Counted from the first letter of the stretch, positions 41,013-50,742 are shown. The stretch is 64,000 nucleotides of DNA from Dasania phycosphaerae (GCF_026891035.1 NZ_JAPTGG010000008.1:157497-221496); one strand, 5' to 3'. Numbers and translations: made by a program. Notes: generated by a model from the letters alone, not told the origin.

Positions 41013-42293
41013 ATGTATAAACTACTAAAAACACCCGGCGCCATTTTTTATGTGCTTGCTTTATTTCTTAATGCCTTTATAGATTTAGGCCATAAAATCA
41101 TTATTCAAAACACCCTGTTTAAAGCCTACGATGGCCAAGAGCAGGTGATATACACCGCTATAGTCAATGCCCTGATTCTTTTGCCATTTATTTTATTGCT
41201 GTCGCCAGTAGGCTTTATTGCTGATAAATACCCCAAACATCAAGTGATGCGTTTCTCGGCATGGCTGGCTGTGGTGGTGACTTTATTTATCACAGCTTGT
41301 TATTACCTGGGCTGGTTTTGGCAGGCCTTCGCCTTAACGTTTGTGTTGGCTATACAGTCGGCATTTTATTCGCCGGCAAAATACGGTTACATCAAATTTT
41401 TATTTGGGGTAGAGCGCTTGGTGCCGGGCAACGGTTTAGTGCAGGCGGTCACTATAGTTGCCATTTTAGCGGGTACCGTGGTGTACTCTTTGTTTTTTGA
41501 AATGCTTTATCCCGCTGGCGTAGTCGACCCAAAAGTGATTTTACAACATATAGCGGTTATCGGCTGGTTGCTGGTGATTAATGCCATTTTTGAGCTAATC
41601 ATGACGTATAAGCTGCCACAGTTAGAGCAGGGCGACCCTGAAAAAACCTTCCCCGTTAAAGCTTATCTGCAAGGCCGGTTAATGCGCCAGCTGGCTGCAC
41701 TGGTTTGCAAAAAATCGATTATCATCTGGGCTATTATTGGCCTGGCTTTATTTTGGTCGGTGGGGCAGGTGATGCTGGCGGCGTTCCCTGCCTATGCCAA
41801 GGCGCAGTACGGGGTAAGCAATACCTTAGTCATACAAGCGGTATTAGGTTGTGCCGGTTTAGGTATAGTGTTGGGCTCGTGGCTAGCGGCAAAATTATCG
41901 ATCAATCAAATACGCATAGTTTTAATCCCTATAGGTGCTATAGGGGTGGCGCTATGCCTCAGCGTATTAACCTTTGCCGGCTCTATAGTTTTATCCGCTG
42001 TATTATTTGTCGGTGTCGGCGCTATGGGCGGTTTAATGATTGCGCCACTTAATGCGCTGATACAATTTCACAGCCAAGAGCATGAGCTGGGCCACGTGCT
42101 GGCCATGAATAACTGGCTGCAAAACGTCGCCATGGCCAGCTTTTTAGGCTTAACTGTCTGGTTTGCTGTGCAGGGCTATAGCAGTGAGTTGTTATTGCAG
42201 TTGATTGCTATATTGGCTTTGCTGGCTAGTACTTTGCTATTGTTTTATTTCTTTTATAAAAATAACAAGCAGCGTGTACAGCGAAAGCAATAG
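41013..42293 (+). CDS. MFS transporter (12-TM; possibly lysophospholipid-transporter LplT-like)
   Basis: ~426 aa from MYKLLKTPGAIFYVLALFLNAF; MFS hydrophobicity pattern; family assignment tentative. Confidence 0.7.
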   Translation: MYKLLKTPGAIFYVLALFLNAFIDLGHKIIIQNTLFKAYDGQEQVIYTAIVNALILLPFILLLSPVGFIADKYPKHQVMRFSAWLAVVVTLFITACYYLGWFWQAFALTFVLAIQSAFYSPAKYGYIKFLFGVERLVPGNGLVQAVTIVAILAGTVVYSLFFEMLYPAGVVDPKVILQHIAVIGWLLVINAIFELIMTYKLPQLEQGDPEKTFPVKAYLQGRLMRQLAALVCKKSIIIWAIIGLALFWSVGQVMLAAFPAYAKAQYGVSNTLVIQAVLGCAGLGIVLGSWLAAKLSINQIRIVLIPIGAIGVALCLSVLTFAGSIVLSAVLFVGVGAMGGLMIAPLNALIQFHSQEHELGHVLAMNNWLQNVAMASFLGLTVWFAVQGYSSELLLQLIAILALLASTLLLFYFFYKNNKQRVQRKQ

Positions 42294-42331
42294 GCTGATG
42301 TTTTTATATCCCTAGCCCCAAACTTTACGCT

Positions 42332-44947
42332 TTAGCCTTGCCCCGTGAGTTGAAAGGCCGCCCAGTAAAAAGGGTGGTTGTTGCTACTGTTTATCATTTG
42401 CTGCTGTGCACTGCGCAGAGCCTGGCCGTAGTTTTGCTGGCTAATCCCTTGATAAAATAAATTCATAAGTTGTTGGGTGCCGCTGTCGTCTACTTTCCAT
42501 AGGCTGGCGATAATGTTGTCGCTGCCGGCGTATAAAAAGCCGCGGGTTAAACCTATGACTTCGTCACCGTTGGCCAAGCTGCCCAGGCCGGTTTCGCAGG
42601 CGGATAGCACAACTAGGCTGGCGTTGAGTTGTAGTTGGTAAACCTCACCCATAGTTAGTTCGCCATCATTGCTGGCGTCTTTGGCTAACAGCAGGCGTGA
42701 TTGCTGAGCCCGGCGGCTGTTAAATTCGCCATGTGAGGCTATGTGTAAAATACCGTATTGCTGGCCTTGTTGTTTGAGCAGGGTTTCTGTTGCCTGTTGT
42801 TGGGTCACTATAGCGCTGTTATTGATGAGTGTAGCGATGCGTTTAACCTCTTGCTCGGCACCGGGCAAATCTACGGTGGGGTTGCCCATAGCTAATAGGG
42901 AGTGCTGCTTGTTAGCGCTATCACGGTTGAGGAATGCCGCCACACTGGCGCTGGGTAGGTGGCTAATAGCCCTTTGTTCAATCAAAAACTGTTGGCCGCT
43001 GTGTAGCGAGGCAAAGGGTAGGTAGTGCAAAGCGCCACTGGCAACGATGGTGAGTTCGGCGTGATCGTTTAATTGTAGCGGGCTAATAAGCTCTTGATAG
43101 AGTTGCTGCGAGAGTTGCTTATAGCGCTGGCTGTTTTTATTTTGTAATTGTTTTCTATAGTCGCTAATGCGTAAGTTTAGTTGTGCCGCATTAAGCTTAA
43201 GCGTTTGTATGTTATTAGCGGTGACTTTAAAGGCATACCATTGGTCATCTAATTCAAGATATTCCACCAACACTTGTGTAGGGCTGAGTAAGGCTTGCAG
43301 CTCTTGTGCGTTAAAAGGCGTAACGGTGGTTAGTGATTGGGTTTCTATTTGTTTGATAGCGGCACGATCGCGGCGGCTATTTTTTAAACCGCGTAGGCCA
43401 GTACTGGTAGCGGCAGTGGCTGCGGGCTGCGGGTTAAAAGCTAGCGGCGCTAGGCTAATGCTGTTGGGCAGTTGTTCGCGTCGGGCTTGGCTGTCGGCTA
43501 GCATATCTACTAACGCGCGGCTGCGTGCGCGCTCAGCCGTTACAAAGGCTTGCTCATCGCGGCCTAGTTTTATAAGCAGGGCTATGGCGCGTTGATAGGC
43601 GCTGGCTTTGTCGCCAACAAAACCAATTTTTTGAGATTCTACCGAGATATTGCCACGGCTATTTTCTACTAGCTGCATGGCCAGTTCATAAGCCTGTAAG
43701 GCGGCGGCTAGTTGCCCTTGCTGCTCAAGGGCATAGCCTTTTTGGTAGGCGCTTAACCAGCGGATTTCGCTAAAGGAGGCGCTATCTCCATCGTTAAGGA
43801 TATTGTTGGCGTGTTTTAGGCTCAGTGCCCAATCTTTATTGTTAGCGGCAATGAGTGCTAATTGTAACTGCTCCCTAAACTGTAAGCCGGTAAACAGCCG
43901 TTCGGTCAGCGCGTCTAAACCATAGTTTGCGCTAAACCCCGCCATTTTGGCGAAAGCCCCGTTGCTATTAAAACCGCTTAGGGCTGTGACAAAGTCACCT
44001 ACTGCCAGCACGGCGCTGCTGCCCACTGCGAAATAGCCCATTAGGGTTTGGCCTATTTCGCTGGCGCTTATTGTCATGGGGCGCATGTGTTGATAGTCAC
44101 CCAGTTCAAACAATACGGTGTTGAGGTAATACTGCCTGGCCCGCTGAAAGCTGTTGTGTATATCGCCGCCATCGCTGGTTTTGTGTAGCCGAGTAATTGT
44201 TTTTATATGTTCGGCGGCTAGTTGCGGGCGACCTAAACGAATTTCACTTTGGGCCGCTAGCGTGGCGCTCATTAATATATCGTAGGACCAGTGAAATTTT
44301 TCATTGCCGCCGGGCAGGGCATAATCATCGCTGCTGCGTTTGCCTTGATTATCGGGCTGAGGGCCGCCAGCGTATACATACATAAAACTTAAATCGCTGC
44401 GCTGGCTAGGGGCCTGCCATTGTTGTTCGCCCAACTCATAATAATTTTTTAAAGCGCTGTTGGCGTGGTCTAGCGCCTGTGTATATTGCCCTAATTGAAA
44501 CCAGGCTTCAGCCAATAGGCGATGCTTGCGGGCTTCCACCTCTTGTGGAAATAGCGCGGTGGTATAGGGTGTTTCGGCAATTAAGGGCTGGCCGGCACGG
44601 GCATAGCTGGCGTACTCAGGGTATTGATTATGTTTGCGCATAAGGCCTAGGGTGAGGGCGAAAGAGCTGCGTTGCCACACCGCCATGCAATCATAAAACT
44701 GGCTGTAGTGGCCTAGGCTTAAATGGGCGTGGCACAGTGCATCTAAGCGGGTAATTTGGTCTGATAAATCGCGGGGCTGATAGCGTTGGGTTAAAGCCTG
44801 TAATTGCCCTTCATAATGTAACTCAGTGGGGGCCATCATGGCCTCGTCTGTGTCATCACTTAATAATGCCGGGTAGGGTGCGGCTAAGCTGACCGAGGCG
44901 GCAGTCAATAGAGGTAAAAATGAGGCTAACAACAGGGCTTTTTTCAT
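42332..44947 (-). CDS. Exported TPR-repeat CHAT-domain (caspase-like) protease
   Basis: 871 aa; cleavable signal peptide (MKKALLLASFLPLLTAASVSLAAP), central TPR-like helical repeats, C-terminal CHAT domain with His/Cys dyad context (ILHIASHGEF ... LVVLSACETG); start overlaps upstream lipoprotein gene (ATGA). Confidence 0.85.
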   Translation of the reverse strand: MKKALLLASFLPLLTAASVSLAAPYPALLSDDTDEAMMAPTELHYEGQLQALTQRYQPRDLSDQITRLDALCHAHLSLGHYSQFYDCMAVWQRSSFALTLGLMRKHNQYPEYASYARAGQPLIAETPYTTALFPQEVEARKHRLLAEAWFQLGQYTQALDHANSALKNYYELGEQQWQAPSQRSDLSFMYVYAGGPQPDNQGKRSSDDYALPGGNEKFHWSYDILMSATLAAQSEIRLGRPQLAAEHIKTITRLHKTSDGGDIHNSFQRARQYYLNTVLFELGDYQHMRPMTISASEIGQTLMGYFAVGSSAVLAVGDFVTALSGFNSNGAFAKMAGFSANYGLDALTERLFTGLQFREQLQLALIAANNKDWALSLKHANNILNDGDSASFSEIRWLSAYQKGYALEQQGQLAAALQAYELAMQLVENSRGNISVESQKIGFVGDKASAYQRAIALLIKLGRDEQAFVTAERARSRALVDMLADSQARREQLPNSISLAPLAFNPQPAATAATSTGLRGLKNSRRDRAAIKQIETQSLTTVTPFNAQELQALLSPTQVLVEYLELDDQWYAFKVTANNIQTLKLNAAQLNLRISDYRKQLQNKNSQRYKQLSQQLYQELISPLQLNDHAELTIVASGALHYLPFASLHSGQQFLIEQRAISHLPSASVAAFLNRDSANKQHSLLAMGNPTVDLPGAEQEVKRIATLINNSAIVTQQQATETLLKQQGQQYGILHIASHGEFNSRRAQQSRLLLAKDASNDGELTMGEVYQLQLNASLVVLSACETGLGSLANGDEVIGLTRGFLYAGSDNIIASLWKVDDSGTQQLMNLFYQGISQQNYGQALRSAQQQMINSSNNHPFYWAAFQLTGQG

Positions 44948-45525
44948 AGGGCTGCACTCACGCTAACAATTTTCTCAATCACGGCGTCTATAAAATTGGT
45001 TTTATTACGTACGCTGTTAATGGCAAAGAGGTTATTAATCTTTAACTCATCATCCATTGCGGTTAATTGCATGCGTTCTTCATGGCTAAAGGTTTTTTGC
45101 TGCTGTGCTTTGCTTAGTGTTATATCGCCAGCAATAACAATATCCGCTGTAGAAAAAGTGACTAAGGCTTTGAGTTCGCTAGTGATAGTGTCGCTAACAC
45201 GGTTTAGTTTTATGTGTAGGCTTTGCCATTGACAATCACTGTTGCTATTAATAGCTATACGGCCATCATGCTGTAGGTATTTTATAAACTGCTGCTTAAT
45301 CACGGAGTCCAAATGCTGGTGGCTGCTATCTATAAAAACGGGATCGCTAACACTTAGCTGAAACTGGCACACCTTAATAGCAGTTGCATTCGGGTGGGGC
45401 TGTGGCGCCATTAGGCCTATATGTTGTTGATAATAATTAAAATCAACGCAGCCGCTAAGTGCGCTGACTAATATTAGATAGCTACATAGACGGCTTAATG
45501 AATAGCGGGAAATAAGAGTTAACAT
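44944..45525 (-). CDS. Lipoprotein of unknown function (193 aa)
   Basis: Lipobox LSG-C after hydrophobic leader; translationally coupled to the CHAT gene. Confidence 0.65.
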   Translation of the reverse strand: MLTLISRYSLSRLCSYLILVSALSGCVDFNYYQQHIGLMAPQPHPNATAIKVCQFQLSVSDPVFIDSSHQHLDSVIKQQFIKYLQHDGRIAINSNSDCQWQSLHIKLNRVSDTITSELKALVTFSTADIVIAGDITLSKAQQQKTFSHEERMQLTAMDDELKINNLFAINSVRNKTNFIDAVIEKIVSVSAAL

Positions 45526-45576
45526 AGTAGAAGCCTAAGTATGAGGGTAGTTAACATAGCTATGGAATGAAACTGC

Positions 45577-47013
45577 TTAGCGACGCTGAGTAGTAAACAG
45601 TAGTACCGCTTCTGTGGCTGTACTCAGCTCTTGGCTGCTGGTTTTTTTCTTTTTTAAACCACGGGTTTGCATTACCGCCTGATTAATATTGTGGGATAGC
45701 ACATAGTACTCACTGCTGGGTTCATAGTTATAGCTGGGTAATTGATTAACCATGTCGCTGCGGCTGGCAATGACTTGTAAGCTTTCTACACCATAGGGTG
45801 GGGAAACAATAAAACTGCCTATAGAAACCCATTTATTTACTTCATCGGCATTCACATAGTAAACAAAGCGGCGATCGCCTTGGGCCTCGTTAATATCGAT
45901 CAGATAAGAGAGCTCGTTTTGTCCATTTTTAGTGTGGCCTACTACATAAAAATAGCCGGGCTTGTTCACTTTAATCAGTATTTCTATTTCTTCTCCATCT
46001 ACAAACAGCAATTGCCTTTGGCCCTTGTTGGTGGCTACTTGTACATTAAAATCGCTGGCTACTGCATAGCCTGCGTGTAATAGGCGGTCAAAGTCTGGCG
46101 CTATAGGTTTGGTGGCTAAATGTTGATAACTACTGGGTGCCAGCTGTGCCAAGCGACTGCTAATAATATTACCTTGGGTATCACTAAGCGTGTAATTAAC
46201 GCTAATACCTTGATCGTTAATTTGATATTCACCATTAAAAATATAGCGTGCTTGCTCTAGGTTATTGGCGCGCGCAAGTCGTTGGTTAATTTCTGTTAGC
46301 AGGGCGGCGGCAAAGGGGGTTATTTCCCTAGAGTGTTTTAAGGTGGCAGGCTGTGCATAGACCTGCCCCTGTGTTATTCCCTTGGTGAGTAGCTTGGCCG
46401 CTAGGCTTAAGCTAGGGGCGGCGGCCTCTAATTGCGCTAGCTGTAACTTAAGCTGCTGCGGGCTAATGCTGATAGGGGCGGGATGGTTTTGCGGGCTGAG
46501 ATAGAGCAAAACCGTGGCAAACTGCTCATAGCGCTGGTAATCGGCCAATAGCTTGAGTAGCTGGGGGTAGTGCTGCGTGCGGGGTATATTGGCTAAGGCC
46601 GCGTATTGTTGCTGAATTTGTTGGGCTAGCTGCTGGGTTTTAGCATGATACAAGCCGCTGGCTACTTGGCTGTCCATGTTGGCTTGGCATAGCTGGCCTT
46701 CGGGGCTGGGGTAGCAATCTAGCTCCACCCCTATCATGGGTAGGTTGCTGCTGCTGTGGCTGCTACTGCTAAAGTTGCTGGCACCGCTGCTGTCTTCTTG
46801 TAGCGTAGAGCTGCTTTCTATTTGCACAAAAATACTGCTGGCTAAGGCGCTAAGCGCTGCGTTTTTGGCGCTGGCTTCATCGCTGCCATAAGCTTGGGCG
46901 CTGAGTGTGCGAGCTTGGCTAAGGCTGTGGCAGGCGAGGATAAGGATTAGGCTAATGAGTGCTTTGCTAAAGCTGGGGCGGTTATGCGAAGTAATACGGC
47001 TAAACATCATCAT
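45577..47013 (-). CDS. Exported (lipobox ILAC) protein with Ser-rich linker and beta-rich C-terminal domain (DUF4384-like by recollection)
   Basis: 478 aa; first gene of the three-gene CHAT operon; C-terminal block QRQLLFVDGEEIEILIKVNKPGYFYVVGHTKNGQ...RFVYYVNADE resembles the domain family commonly fused/linked to CHAT/caspase proteins. Confidence 0.6.
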   Translation of the reverse strand: MMMFSRITSHNRPSFSKALISLILILACHSLSQARTLSAQAYGSDEASAKNAALSALASSIFVQIESSSTLQEDSSGASNFSSSSHSSSNLPMIGVELDCYPSPEGQLCQANMDSQVASGLYHAKTQQLAQQIQQQYAALANIPRTQHYPQLLKLLADYQRYEQFATVLLYLSPQNHPAPISISPQQLKLQLAQLEAAAPSLSLAAKLLTKGITQGQVYAQPATLKHSREITPFAAALLTEINQRLARANNLEQARYIFNGEYQINDQGISVNYTLSDTQGNIISSRLAQLAPSSYQHLATKPIAPDFDRLLHAGYAVASDFNVQVATNKGQRQLLFVDGEEIEILIKVNKPGYFYVVGHTKNGQNELSYLIDINEAQGDRRFVYYVNADEVNKWVSIGSFIVSPPYGVESLQVIASRSDMVNQLPSYNYEPSSEYYVLSHNINQAVMQTRGLKKKKTSSQELSTATEAVLLFTTQRR

Positions 47014-47150
47014 TCCATAAAAATGCCAAGGCTTAGGTGTTGCGCTGGCTGGTTATTATTCCTATACAGCTTAGCGTATTAATGGCGCTGTATGTTTTTA
47101 AAATAGCTGCGAATGCTCAAAAAACAAACGCCTTGTTATTGCTGGCCAGT

Positions 47151-47942
47151 CTAACGCACTAACTTATCTAGGTGTAACAAAAATAAATTGAATAACTCCG
47201 CCTGTGTGTTGATGTCTAGGCGTTCATAAATATTTTTTCTATGCACCTTCACTGTCGAGGGGCTGATATCCAAAGCCTTAGCCAGTGACTTGGAAGAGTG
47301 GCCCTGTAATATCAGTTGCGCTACCTGTTGCTCTCGTGGGGTTAGTTGTTCACTGCAAAAATTTTCAAAGGCGCTAGCTACTGGTGAGTGATCATTACTG
47401 TGCAGGGGGGGCTGTAGTGCATAAAACTGTTGCACCACAGCATTCAATAGCGGTGTGGTGGCGGCCAAACTGTTGAGGTTGTCACGGGTAAAAACCTCGT
47501 GGTGGTTACGGCGAGCTAGTGATATCACTAGGCTACTTTGTTGATCTACAGGTATAAAAATACCAAGTTCATCGGCTAGGTCCAGATCACGATAGTAAAG
47601 CTGAAAATACTCTGTGTCTTCAAAATTATCGGGGGCAAAGTCATCCAGATGATAAATACCATTAAGCTGTGGCTGTTTTATTAACTCGCTATAAAAAGGG
47701 TCTAATAAATATAGCCCTTGGGTGTATTTAATGACTGCCTTATGCCGCTTGGGGTTGGGGTAGTCATCGTAGAGTAGACTGGGTGCTTGTTGTGTTGAGT
47801 AAAGCAAAACAATGGCAGTATCAAACACTAACCACTGCTGAATAGCGTTAACCAGCTCGCCGGCCATATTGGGGGCTTGCTGGCTGAGTAAAGCCTGTGC
47901 CATGTGCTGGTGCCATTGTTGTAGTGCTGCAAGGTCGGGCAT
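47151..47942 (-). CDS. LuxR-family transcriptional regulator (C-terminal HTH)
   Basis: 263 aa; C-terminal LTPREQQVAQLILQGHSSKSLAKALDISPSTVKVHRKNIYERL LuxR/FixJ HTH; N-terminal domain of unknown type; directly upstream of the CHAT operon, divergent from aguB. Confidence 0.8.
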   Translation of the reverse strand: MPDLAALQQWHQHMAQALLSQQAPNMAGELVNAIQQWLVFDTAIVLLYSTQQAPSLLYDDYPNPKRHKAVIKYTQGLYLLDPFYSELIKQPQLNGIYHLDDFAPDNFEDTEYFQLYYRDLDLADELGIFIPVDQQSSLVISLARRNHHEVFTRDNLNSLAATTPLLNAVVQQFYALQPPLHSNDHSPVASAFENFCSEQLTPREQQVAQLILQGHSSKSLAKALDISPSTVKVHRKNIYERLDINTQAELFNLFLLHLDKLVR

Positions 47943-48132
47943 GGTTAACTCGATAGCGTTGAGGCTGCAAGGGCTTAGGCCTTGCTGTTATTTGGGTGTT
48001 ATTTTGTGGATACGGCTGTTTAAGCTGCAATACTGGCTAAATAAATTTGTAACCGTACCCCTATGGGACTATTCACCCAGCTTAAACCACTTTGTATAGT
48101 TATTTCAAATTGGTTTTATAGAGGTCATGCCA

Positions 48133-49031
48133 TGAGAGAAGTAACCGTAGCAGCAACCCAAATGACGGTAAGTTGGGATTTAGATGATAATGTTAATAAG
48201 GCTGAGCGTTTAATACGCGAAGCTGCCGCGAAAGGCGCTAATATAATTCTGATTCAGGAATTATTTGAAGCACCCTATTTTTGTATAGAGCAAGATGCAA
48301 AGCATTTTAAATTAGCGACCAGTTTAGAAGAAAACACCAACATCAAACGGTTTCAAGCCTTAGCCAAAGAGCTAAATGTGGTTTTGCCCTTTAGCTGGTT
48401 TGAAAAAGCGGGTAAGGCATTTTTTAACTCTATGGCAATGATAGATGCCGATGGCAGTATCTTAGGGGTATACCGTAAATCACATATACCCAATGGCCCC
48501 GGTTATCAAGAGAAGCAATACTTCAACCCCGGCGATACCGGTTTTAAAGTATGGGATACCCAGTTCGCGAAAGTGGGTGTGGGTATATGCTGGGATCAGT
48601 GGTTCCCCGAGTCGGCCCGCTGCATGGCCTTATTAGGTGCAGAAATTTTAATGTATCCTACGGCCATAGGTTCAGAGCCGCCACCAGCGCCACCGTTGGA
48701 TTCTCGCTATCACTGGCAACGGGTAATGCAAGGCCATGCCGGTGCTAACATCATGCCTTTAGTTGCCTCTAATCGCATAGGTATTGAGCGCGCTACTCAA
48801 GATGACAATTATGCCATTACCTTTTATGGCTCATCTTTTATCGCTGATTACACGGGCGAGAAAGTACAAGAGGCTAACGACAGCGATGAGACGGTATTGG
48901 TGCATACCTTTGATTTAGACGCTGTAGCCGAATATCGAGAAAGCTGGGGTGTTTACCGAGATAGACGTCCTGAGTTATATCAACCTATAGCGACTTTAGA
49001 TGGTCAGTTGCCACACCATGCTAGAAAATAA
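48133..49031 (+). CDS. aguB: N-carbamoylputrescine amidase (CN-hydrolase)
   Basis: ~299 aa from MREVTVAATQMTVSWDLD; collinear with P. aeruginosa AguB opening (TVATTQM.CSWDLD.N...AERL.REAAA.GA..IL.QELF..PYFCIEQD). Confidence 0.85.
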
Positions 49032-50130: not shown

Positions 50131-50607
50131 TTACAAACATTTACATGAACAAGAGATAGGGTGGGACAAATCCGGCCGCACAATTTCACAACTGTATTTT
50201 TTACGGTTGGCACATACCGATGCCGATACGTCTCTAGAGGTACAGGTTAAATTGCTGGTATTGCCGGGGTAGCTTTGGCATTTTTTGTTGGGGTCTACAC
50301 AGCCGCTGGGGCATTGTGGGTCGGCATTGCCAGAGCAATTTAAGCTTACCCAAGCGCTGGTGGCTTTGCGTTTTGCTTTCTCTTCGTCGCAGTCTTCACC
50401 TCTGCCGGTGAGTTGCGAGTTGGGGGTATTGGGGTTGCCCGGCGAGCAAAAGCCGGCAGTTTTAGTGGGCGGGTTTATCTCTTGTTGTACCGGTGGTGGG
50501 TGTTTTTCGATTTCATTATTTGCAGGGCTGTTGTTACTAACGGGGTCGCAAGCGCTTAGCAGTACCGCGCTTAGGCTAATACTTAGTAGGGTTTTAAAAA
50601 AAGTCAT
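50131..50607 (-). CDS. Small Cys-rich lipoprotein of unknown function
   Basis: ~158 aa from MTFFKTLLSISLSAVLLSAC (lipobox); mature part Pro/Asn/Gly-rich with ~14 Cys (CSPGNPN..., CDEE, CSGNADPQCPSGC, CQSYPGN..LTCTS, CANRKKYSC, CSCKC). Confidence 0.55.
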   Translation of the reverse strand: MTFFKTLLSISLSAVLLSACDPVSNNSPANNEIEKHPPPVQQEINPPTKTAGFCSPGNPNTPNSQLTGRGEDCDEEKAKRKATSAWVSLNCSGNADPQCPSGCVDPNKKCQSYPGNTSNLTCTSRDVSASVCANRKKYSCEIVRPDLSHPISCSCKCL

Positions 50608-50742
50608 ATCACCGCTCCTGTTATCTTGTTGATATTTAGGTTGGGCGAGTAAAGGTCGATAAAACGGTAAATCCTCTGGTTTACTCAGGCTTACAGCGAT
50701 TAAATACTGCGCTAAATTGGCCTTAATGGCCAGCATCTTTTG

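Follow-up and report, generated by a model that had tools for sequence, protein, structure and literature searches.

An exported CHAT-domain protease, its lipoprotein partner and a DUF4384 protein predicted in Dasania phycosphaerae

What would a caspase-fold protease do outside the cytoplasm? The question is raised by positions 42332-47942 of a 64,000-nucleotide stretch of Dasania phycosphaerae DNA (GCF_026891035.1, NZ_JAPTGG010000008.1:157497-221496), the whole of which is called the window here. In the open reading frame (ORF) listing of the window this interval holds four minus-strand ORFs, a LuxR-family regulator gene followed by three genes that we name g1, g2 and g3, and g3 encodes a CHAT-domain protein that begins with a predicted signal peptide. 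To our knowledge, the bacterial CHAT and caspase-like proteases of known mechanism are all cytoplasmic, namely Craspase, the gasdermin activators and HetF. A preliminary description of the locus had proposed an exported, caspase-like module of the envelope, and that proposal held: the CHAT domain retains its predicted catalytic dyad, its export is conserved and the locus matched no known defence system.

The protease g3 and its export

The product of g3 (42332..44947, minus strand; 871 amino acids) is a predicted exported cysteine protease with a tetratricopeptide repeat (TPR)-like helical region and a C-terminal CHAT domain (residues 611-870; 42338..43117, minus strand). This domain, which has the caspase-hemoglobinase fold of clan CD, matched PF12770 with 244.9 bits against a cut-off of 24 (E 1.5e-72) and covered profile positions 2-289 of 289. 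The predicted catalytic residues His739 and Cys784 lie in the motifs HIASHGE (42725..42745, minus strand) and LSACETG (42587..42607, minus strand), both of them invariant, and both residues are conserved throughout the 30-sequence alignment of the g3 family. The full-length protein found no match in the PDB by phmmer, and the family profile was needed to reach structures. The CHAT profile then matched the Csx29/TPR-CHAT structures with E 4e-7, and H739 and C784 fell on residues 585 and 627 of 7x8a_D, the H585/C627 pair that we take from the Craspase literature to be the catalytic dyad of Csx29. Judged from these profiles and motifs, g3 encodes a CHAT protease whose His739/Cys784 dyad is intact, as first described. 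The TPR repeats ascribed to it fared less evenly, for all matches within the window protein itself were under the Pfam cut-offs, and the TPR character is backed mainly by the homologues and by a profile match to consensus TPR proteins. The protein is 100% identical to a "CHAT domain-containing protein" of Dasania sp. GY-MA-18.

The N-terminus of g3 is a signal peptide of the signal peptidase I (SPase-I) type, running from MKK to SLA/AP (residues 1-22, MKKALLLASFLPLLTAASVSLA / AP; 44882..44947, minus strand), and an N-terminal signal or a lipobox is conserved in the family. Export was called by a crude test of hydrophobicity and lipobox on CHAT ORFs of at least 650 amino acids in 80 related genome loci. 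By this test 80 of the 83 CHAT ORFs carried a signal peptide or lipobox, compared with 39% of the other genes, and the lipobox was present in 50 of the 83, so marking the lipoproteins of this wider exported-CHAT family. Among the close homologues of g3, 27 of 32 were flagged as exported by a similarly crude signal-peptide test; three of the remaining five were truncated gene calls and two had signal peptides by eye. Besides, Cys72 and Cys87 in the N-terminal helical region (44687..44734, minus strand) were invariant in 30 homologues and are a probable periplasmic disulfide. As relatives of g3 are encoded in at least 500 stretches of a genome scan that took one genome per species, exported CHAT proteins appear to be common in the sequence databases. 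The predicted signals identify CHAT export as a conserved family trait and not as an artefact of start-codon calls. Full-text literature searches found no paper on exported or periplasmic CHAT proteases, on CHAT with CHASE2 or on CHAT with a lipoprotein, which agrees with the initial view that this module differs from the cytoplasmic CHAT proteases known from bacteria.

The lipoprotein g2 and the DUF4384 protein g1

The gene g2 (44944..45525, minus strand) overlaps the start of g3 by the ATGA at 44944-44947 and encodes 193 amino acids. Its product is a predicted lipoprotein, as had been proposed, with the lipobox L-S-G-C at residues 23-26 (Cys26), which fits the pattern [LVI][ASTVI][GAS]C and whose Cys is kept in at least 90% of the family. 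This family is small; an exhaustive HMMER search found nine relatives among 1.84 billion representative proteins, nearly all of which have the lipobox Cys, two further invariant Cys (C53/C98) and the motifs G[LF]MAP and NSVRN[RK]T. An AlphaFold2 (AF2) model built from the 10-sequence alignment, with a predicted local distance difference test score (pLDDT) of 83, resembled outer-membrane lipoproteins, that is the HpaA-like 3bgh, LptE, PqiC/DUF330, PelC and CsgG. The Foldseek probabilities were 0.98-1.0, but the template modelling (TM) scores of 0.35-0.58 were modest and the E values ranged from 3e-4 to 7e-3.

In all six contexts in which g2 was found (the window, D. marina, Marinobacter nauticus and three metagenome contigs) it was followed immediately by a CHAT gene of the g3 type. 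The two genes overlapped by 4 bp in five contexts and by 1 bp in one (L086). All the g2-linked CHAT proteins have SPase-I signals, and most members of the wider exported-CHAT family are lipoproteins themselves. The N-terminal ~350 residues of g3 could be aligned only with g2-linked CHAT proteins, and the wider family is without this region. Because of the strict pairing, the SPase-I signals and this subtype-specific region, g2 may be regarded as a tether or regulator of an otherwise soluble protease. Other genes were also noted around the pair. In Marinobacter nauticus (L006, 6590-9202) an 870-amino-acid signal-peptide protein of unknown family, rich in Thr, Asp and Cys, is encoded directly upstream of g2-CHAT, in the position where g1 would be expected. 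In a 5.9-kb metagenome contig (L085, 4883-5387) a ParD-like/ParE-like toxin-antitoxin pair lies ~1 kb downstream.

The third partner, g1 (45577..47013, minus strand; 478 amino acids), is also predicted to be exported. It was at first taken for a lipobox protein with a Ser-rich linker, and neither feature was borne out. Its signal peptide (residues 1-34; 46912..47013, minus strand) has a predicted SPase-I site at SQA/RT; most of the 35 homologues lack Cys28, and their signal peptides end in A-x-A type sites aligned with SQA/RT. Given these sites and the general lack of Cys28, g1 most likely is soluble in the periplasm and not a lipoprotein. The Ser-rich stretch (~76-90) aligns with a segment of conserved length that belongs to the folded N-terminal domain and is predicted to form beta strands.

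The AF2 model of g1 (pLDDT 85.6) starts with an alpha/beta domain (36-114), a helical hairpin (115-172) and a second alpha/beta domain (~200-291). These are followed by a low-confidence linker (~300-320), a confident DUF4384 beta-sandwich (324-440), a helix, the loop TRGLKKKK and the strand EAVLLFTT. The alpha/beta domains gave fold matches to HP1454 of the LPP20 family, the TolB N-terminal domain, the LpoB C-terminal domain and a Campylobacter flagellar periplasmic scaffold protein, and the match of g1 to the LPP20 profile of Pfam (PF02169) was 17.5 bits, under the cut-off of 25.9. The C-terminal DUF4384-like domain of the preliminary description was upheld (residues 337-419; 45757..46005, minus strand). 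Its match to PF14326 was marginal at 27.8 bits against a cut-off of 27, and a hidden Markov model (HMM) made from DUF4384 domains of the neighbourhoods matched it with E 5.6e-22. The C-terminal element that follows (45580..45672, minus strand) consists of the basic loop MQTRGLKKKK..., of low confidence (pLDDT ~54), and the terminal strand. In it R451, L453, E468, T474 and T475 are invariant or nearly so, and the loop looks like a processing site, which makes it a candidate for cleavage. A 290-amino-acid DUF4384 protein encoded directly upstream of a lipoprotein CHAT in Alteromonas (L017/L021, 8287-9159) has a similar end, with RTRGIK and then a terminal strand, and DUF4384 may generally be extended by such a basic loop and strand.

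The neighbourhoods of g1 vary. In D. marina the operon runs 250-amino-acid protein, g1, lytic transglycosylase, 366-amino-acid protein, LPP20 lipoprotein, g2 and CHAT, i.e. with four genes additional to g1-g2-CHAT, and in Alkalimarinus alittae the order is 250-amino-acid protein, LPP20, transglycosylase, g1, CHAT and a small lipoprotein. A lytic transglycosylase gene also belongs to the module in some metagenome loci, and true LPP20 lipoprotein genes adjoin g1 in several loci; none of the extra genes of these operons was present within the window. In Psychromonas ossibalaenae (L010, 4160-14327; NZ_KB907020.1) a g1 homologue is followed by four tandem paralogous lipoprotein CHATs of 805-834 amino acids, each with an LSGC or LSAC lipobox, and an LPP20-type lipoprotein gene lies just after them on the opposite strand. 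In Vibrio sp. HA2012 (L084, 5539-8666) g1 and LPP20 lie beside genes for SIS-domain, AnmK and Glyco_hydro_3 proteins, a murQ/anmK/nagZ-like set of peptidoglycan recycling, which may be a coincidence or a link to the cell wall.

Neighbours of g1 were counted with domain-specific HMMs in 80 metagenomic g1 loci. A Peptidase_C14 gene was present in 31 of them and a CHAT gene in 6-7, with a protease gene at most 300 bp from g1 in 22 loci; where at least 3 kb was available on both sides, a protease lay within 3 kb in 9 of 17. The domains of the C14 neighbours were confirmed by Pfam and were combined with PEGA, FGE-sulfatase, WD40 or PDZ domains, and 27 of the 29 complete ones had a hydrophobic N-terminus. 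Of 80 loci of the wider exported-CHAT family, in turn, 18 have DUF4384, either free-standing or fused to C14. The conserved rule is therefore a DUF4384 protein with an exported caspase-fold protease, for which C14 and CHAT are interchangeable, and it is credible that DUF4384 serves such proteases as a recognition or substrate module. The idea that g1, g2, CHAT and LuxR recur together as one module was not confirmed; g1-g2-CHAT is no fixed triad, g2-CHAT is the strict pair, the g1 family pairs with C14 more than with CHAT, and the LuxR gene is not conserved.

CHASE2 proteins, mostly adenylate or guanylate cyclases, were found in 11 of the 80 wider exported-CHAT loci (L003, L013, L023, L038, L040, L042, L045, L049, L056, L075 and L082) and lay within 300 bp of a CHAT gene in 5 of them; MlaD/MlaE genes and fusions of C14 with DUF4384 were often present as well. 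It is a hint that CHASE2 sensors, for which we know of no ligand, work together with exported caspase-fold proteases. The count comes from a CHASE2-specific HMM; a figure of 30 of 77 loci from single-linkage clustering was rejected, as the clusters had been chained through cyclase, kinase and receiver domains.

Gene layout, regulator and flanks

The three genes lie on the same strand, as first noted, and of the several ATGA overlaps then claimed, the 4 bp between g2 and g3 are the sole one at the locus, g1 and g2 being 51 bp apart. The LuxR-family gene (47151..47942, minus strand) is indeed upstream, 137 bp from g1, and encodes 263 amino acids with a GerE helix-turn-helix (HTH; PF00196) at 59.8 bits against a cut-off of 23.5. 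Residues 9-146 of its product matched PDB entry 5xhx with E 1.8e-13, which is VqsR of P. aeruginosa (PMC9144697), and by these matches it is a VqsR-like LuxR solo.

The regulator had been called dedicated to the operon, and for this no support was found. A phmmer search at E at most 1e-3 found LuxR homologues in 0 of 82 related loci, and the gene was absent from the D. marina, Alkalimarinus, Marinobacter and Psychromonas loci alike. In the window it diverges from a CN-hydrolase gene. Scans for promoters and terminators over 42100-48200 gave counts not above those of shuffled controls, and the terminator scan found no terminator-like site on the minus strand in the gap between LuxR and g1. As the related loci are without LuxR, the gene is divergent from the CN-hydrolase and the scans are uninformative, the word dedicated is unsupported; the VqsR-like protein may regulate g1-g2-g3 all the same.

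The flanking genes are ordinary ones, a LysR regulator, a haloacid dehalogenase (HAD) hydrolase and a convergent major facilitator superfamily (MFS) transporter on one side and the divergent CN-hydrolase, a thioesterase and PabB on the other. The base composition of the locus showed nothing unusual, and tRNA and Rfam scans of the window gave no matches. LuxR and CN-hydrolase diverge from a short common intergenic region (47942-48132). The annotated start of the latter (48063) is probably upstream of the real one, since the Pfam CN_hydrolase domain begins at residue 28 and an internal Met stands at 24. Farther away (50131-50736, minus strand) lies an ORF of 201 amino acids whose N-terminus is lipobox-like (LLSAC), whose C-terminal half is very rich in Cys and which has no Pfam match.

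Function at the envelope and comparison with known systems

The reading that we favour, with a probability of about 50%, is an envelope-resident (periplasmic) caspase-fold proteolytic module in which g2 is the tether or regulator and g1 the DUF4384-bearing target or docking partner of the protease. Exported, soluble g3 would be held at the membrane by g2, probably at the inner face of the outer membrane, and g2 would probably also control it by binding the N-terminal helical region that is unique to the g2-linked CHAT subtype. The cognate docking partner or substrate would be g1, with its DUF4384 beta-sandwich as the handle recognised by g3, and the most likely cut site would be the conserved, disordered basic loop (TRGLKKKK) just after DUF4384. 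Cleavage could then alter an assembly of the LPP20/TolB-N/LpoB-like domains associated with the outer membrane or the cell wall; in relatives the module also comes with the LPP20 lipoprotein and the lytic transglycosylase.

Several observations weigh against this picture. An adjacent small lipoprotein was found for 3 of the 28 SPase-I CHATs of the wider exported-CHAT family, which confines the tether idea to the g2-linked subfamily, and the small lipoprotein after the Alkalimarinus CHAT was rejected as an analogue of g2, for hhalign aligned the lipobox region alone. About half of the g1 loci have no nearby protease, and in Vibrio sp. HA2012 g1 and LPP20 occur without a CHAT gene, so that the function of g1 does not strictly depend on a neighbouring protease. 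The contacts of g2 and of g1 with the CHAT protein are inferred from gene linkage only. The macroglobulin-type likeness of the g1 DUF4384 fold is no better than that of generic immunoglobulin-like domains, and we know of no basic cleavage specificity among CHAT proteases.

Of the alternatives, the one that survives best, though we think it clearly the less probable, makes g1 a scaffold, adaptor or inhibitor that places the protease on a ring of the outer membrane or peptidoglycan, the true substrates being other envelope proteins such as cell-wall hydrolases. It would suit the likeness of the g1 domains to LpoB-C, TolB-N, HP1454 and the flagellar scaffold, the transglycosylase genes of related modules and the many loci in which g1 has no neighbouring protease. 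The window operon, however, holds no hydrolase gene, and the conserved, exposed basic loop of g1 resembles a processing site. DUF4384, moreover, is fused to C14 proteases and to the substrate Csx30, which suits a role in recognition or as a substrate at least equally well.

A periplasm-facing conflict or defence system, in which the exported CHAT effector, once triggered, would attack invader proteins or the envelope of its own cell, as in gasdermin, cyclic-oligonucleotide-based antiphage signalling (CBASS) and type III-E systems, seems unlikely to us. CHAT and C14 proteases are frequent effectors of conflict systems (PMC10907252). The fast evolution of g2 and its tiny family would fit such a role, as would the paralogue expansions of the kind seen in P. 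ossibalaenae, the differing genomic sites of the module in two Dasania species and the ParDE pair near one related module. The search of PADLOC-DB 2.0, on the other hand, returned no system, but only a partial, weak match of the CHAT core to BovA (E 5.5e-6), an HTH-only match for LuxR and none for g1 and g2. The adjacent genes include none for an NTPase, a sensor or a gasdermin and no cas gene, those of the flanks are of housekeeping type with unremarkable base composition, and the partners in relatives are proteins of envelope structure (LPP20 and lytic transglycosylase).

Protease secretion is widespread among marine gammaproteobacteria, and g3, with its signal peptide and marine host, might be a broad-specificity protease that the cell releases in order to gain nutrients or to interact with a host. 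We hold this to be very improbable; most homologues of g3 are cell-anchored lipoproteins, the TPR region and the dedicated partner genes suggest specific protein-protein recognition, and the characterised caspase-fold proteases are processing enzymes of narrow specificity. That the signal peptides are mis-called starts of cytoplasmic proteins is effectively refuted: its sole support is a few homologues without an N-terminus (P0010, P0015 and P0019), which begin at or past the first conserved motif and look truncated, and against it stand the signals or lipoboxes conserved in 34 of 35 g1 and ~9 of 10 g2 homologues as well as in the CHATs, just as export of all three proteins had been predicted, the invariant Cys pairs, and an ORF listing with no alternative upstream start and with hydrophobic segments directly after the first ATG.

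If the envelope-resident module is the right reading, the window presents a compact version, with the two partners g2 and g1, of a large CHAT family whose export is conserved, and DUF4384, which Csx30 carries too and whose function is unknown, gains a concrete and testable role as recognition or substrate module of caspase-fold proteases. A wider and distinctly tentative proposal is that DUF4384 proteins like g1 are dedicated substrates or switches of an unrecognised class of periplasmic caspase-fold (C14/CHAT) proteases, that cleavage in the basic loop remodels an envelope assembly and that the CHASE2-linked relatives signal through cyclic nucleotides. Were it true, Craspase-Csx30 or caspase-gasdermin would have a counterpart in the envelope, and in the CHASE2-cyclase loci a proteolytic signal would be fed into cyclic-nucleotide signalling. 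All this suggests that caspase-like proteolysis takes place under regulation in the Gram-negative envelope, a field not yet studied, for which the three-gene Dasania operon may serve as a minimal system.

Type III-E Craspase is among the closest known systems. Its protease Csx29 is built like g3, with TPR-type helices at the N-terminus and, at the C-terminus, a CHAT domain whose catalytic His and Cys align, and its gene stands beside that of a partner, Csx30, which can carry DUF4384. However, g3 scored 61.7 bits against the cut-off of 300 for Csx29 (NCBIfam NF041237) and is not its orthologue. The neighbours of g3 are g2, g1, LuxR and the MFS transporter with no gRAMP/Cas7-11 gene, its signal peptide predicts an extracytoplasmic location, and it is paired with a lipoprotein and an LPP20-like protein instead of Csx30, Csx31 and RpoE. 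The bacterial orthocaspases and metacaspase-like C14 proteases (with DUF4384, FGE-sulfatase and WD40 domains) belong to the same caspase-hemoglobinase superfamily and share the association with DUF4384, and it is signal-peptide C14 genes that g1-family genes adjoin more often than CHAT genes. They differ in that g3 is a C50-like CHAT protease with a TPR region, that DUF4384 resides on a separate protein, g1, and that a private lipoprotein, g2, is added.

For the mode of action, NlpI-Prc and LbcA-CtpA, in which an outer-membrane lipoprotein adaptor serves a soluble periplasmic protease, provide a working analogy, for in them, as in g3 and its relatives, a periplasmic protease has a lipoprotein partner, a TPR region is present and there is a connection with cell-wall enzymes. 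Their proteases are serine enzymes, whereas g3 has a Cys/His caspase fold, and the TPR region is on the protease g3 and not on the lipoprotein. The LPP20/HP1454 lipoproteins of Helicobacter and the FlgP-like ring proteins resemble g1, some homologues of which are named "LPP20 family lipoprotein" by NCBI, but g1 is without the conserved lipobox Cys and has in addition the helical hairpin, the second alpha/beta domain and DUF4384. HetF of Anabaena is a CHAT protein associated with the membrane and divisome and linked to cell-wall synthesis through FtsI (PMC8406250). Its CHAT domain is N-terminal (amino acids 1-555), it has no signal peptide, and its architecture and partners are unlike those of g3; it is nevertheless the nearest membrane-associated case to the exported CHAT proteins. 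What was known before are cytoplasmic CHAT proteases, and what is new here is a CHAT protein with conserved export, a lipoprotein partner in g2 and a DUF4384 partner of a kind shared with exported C14 proteases.

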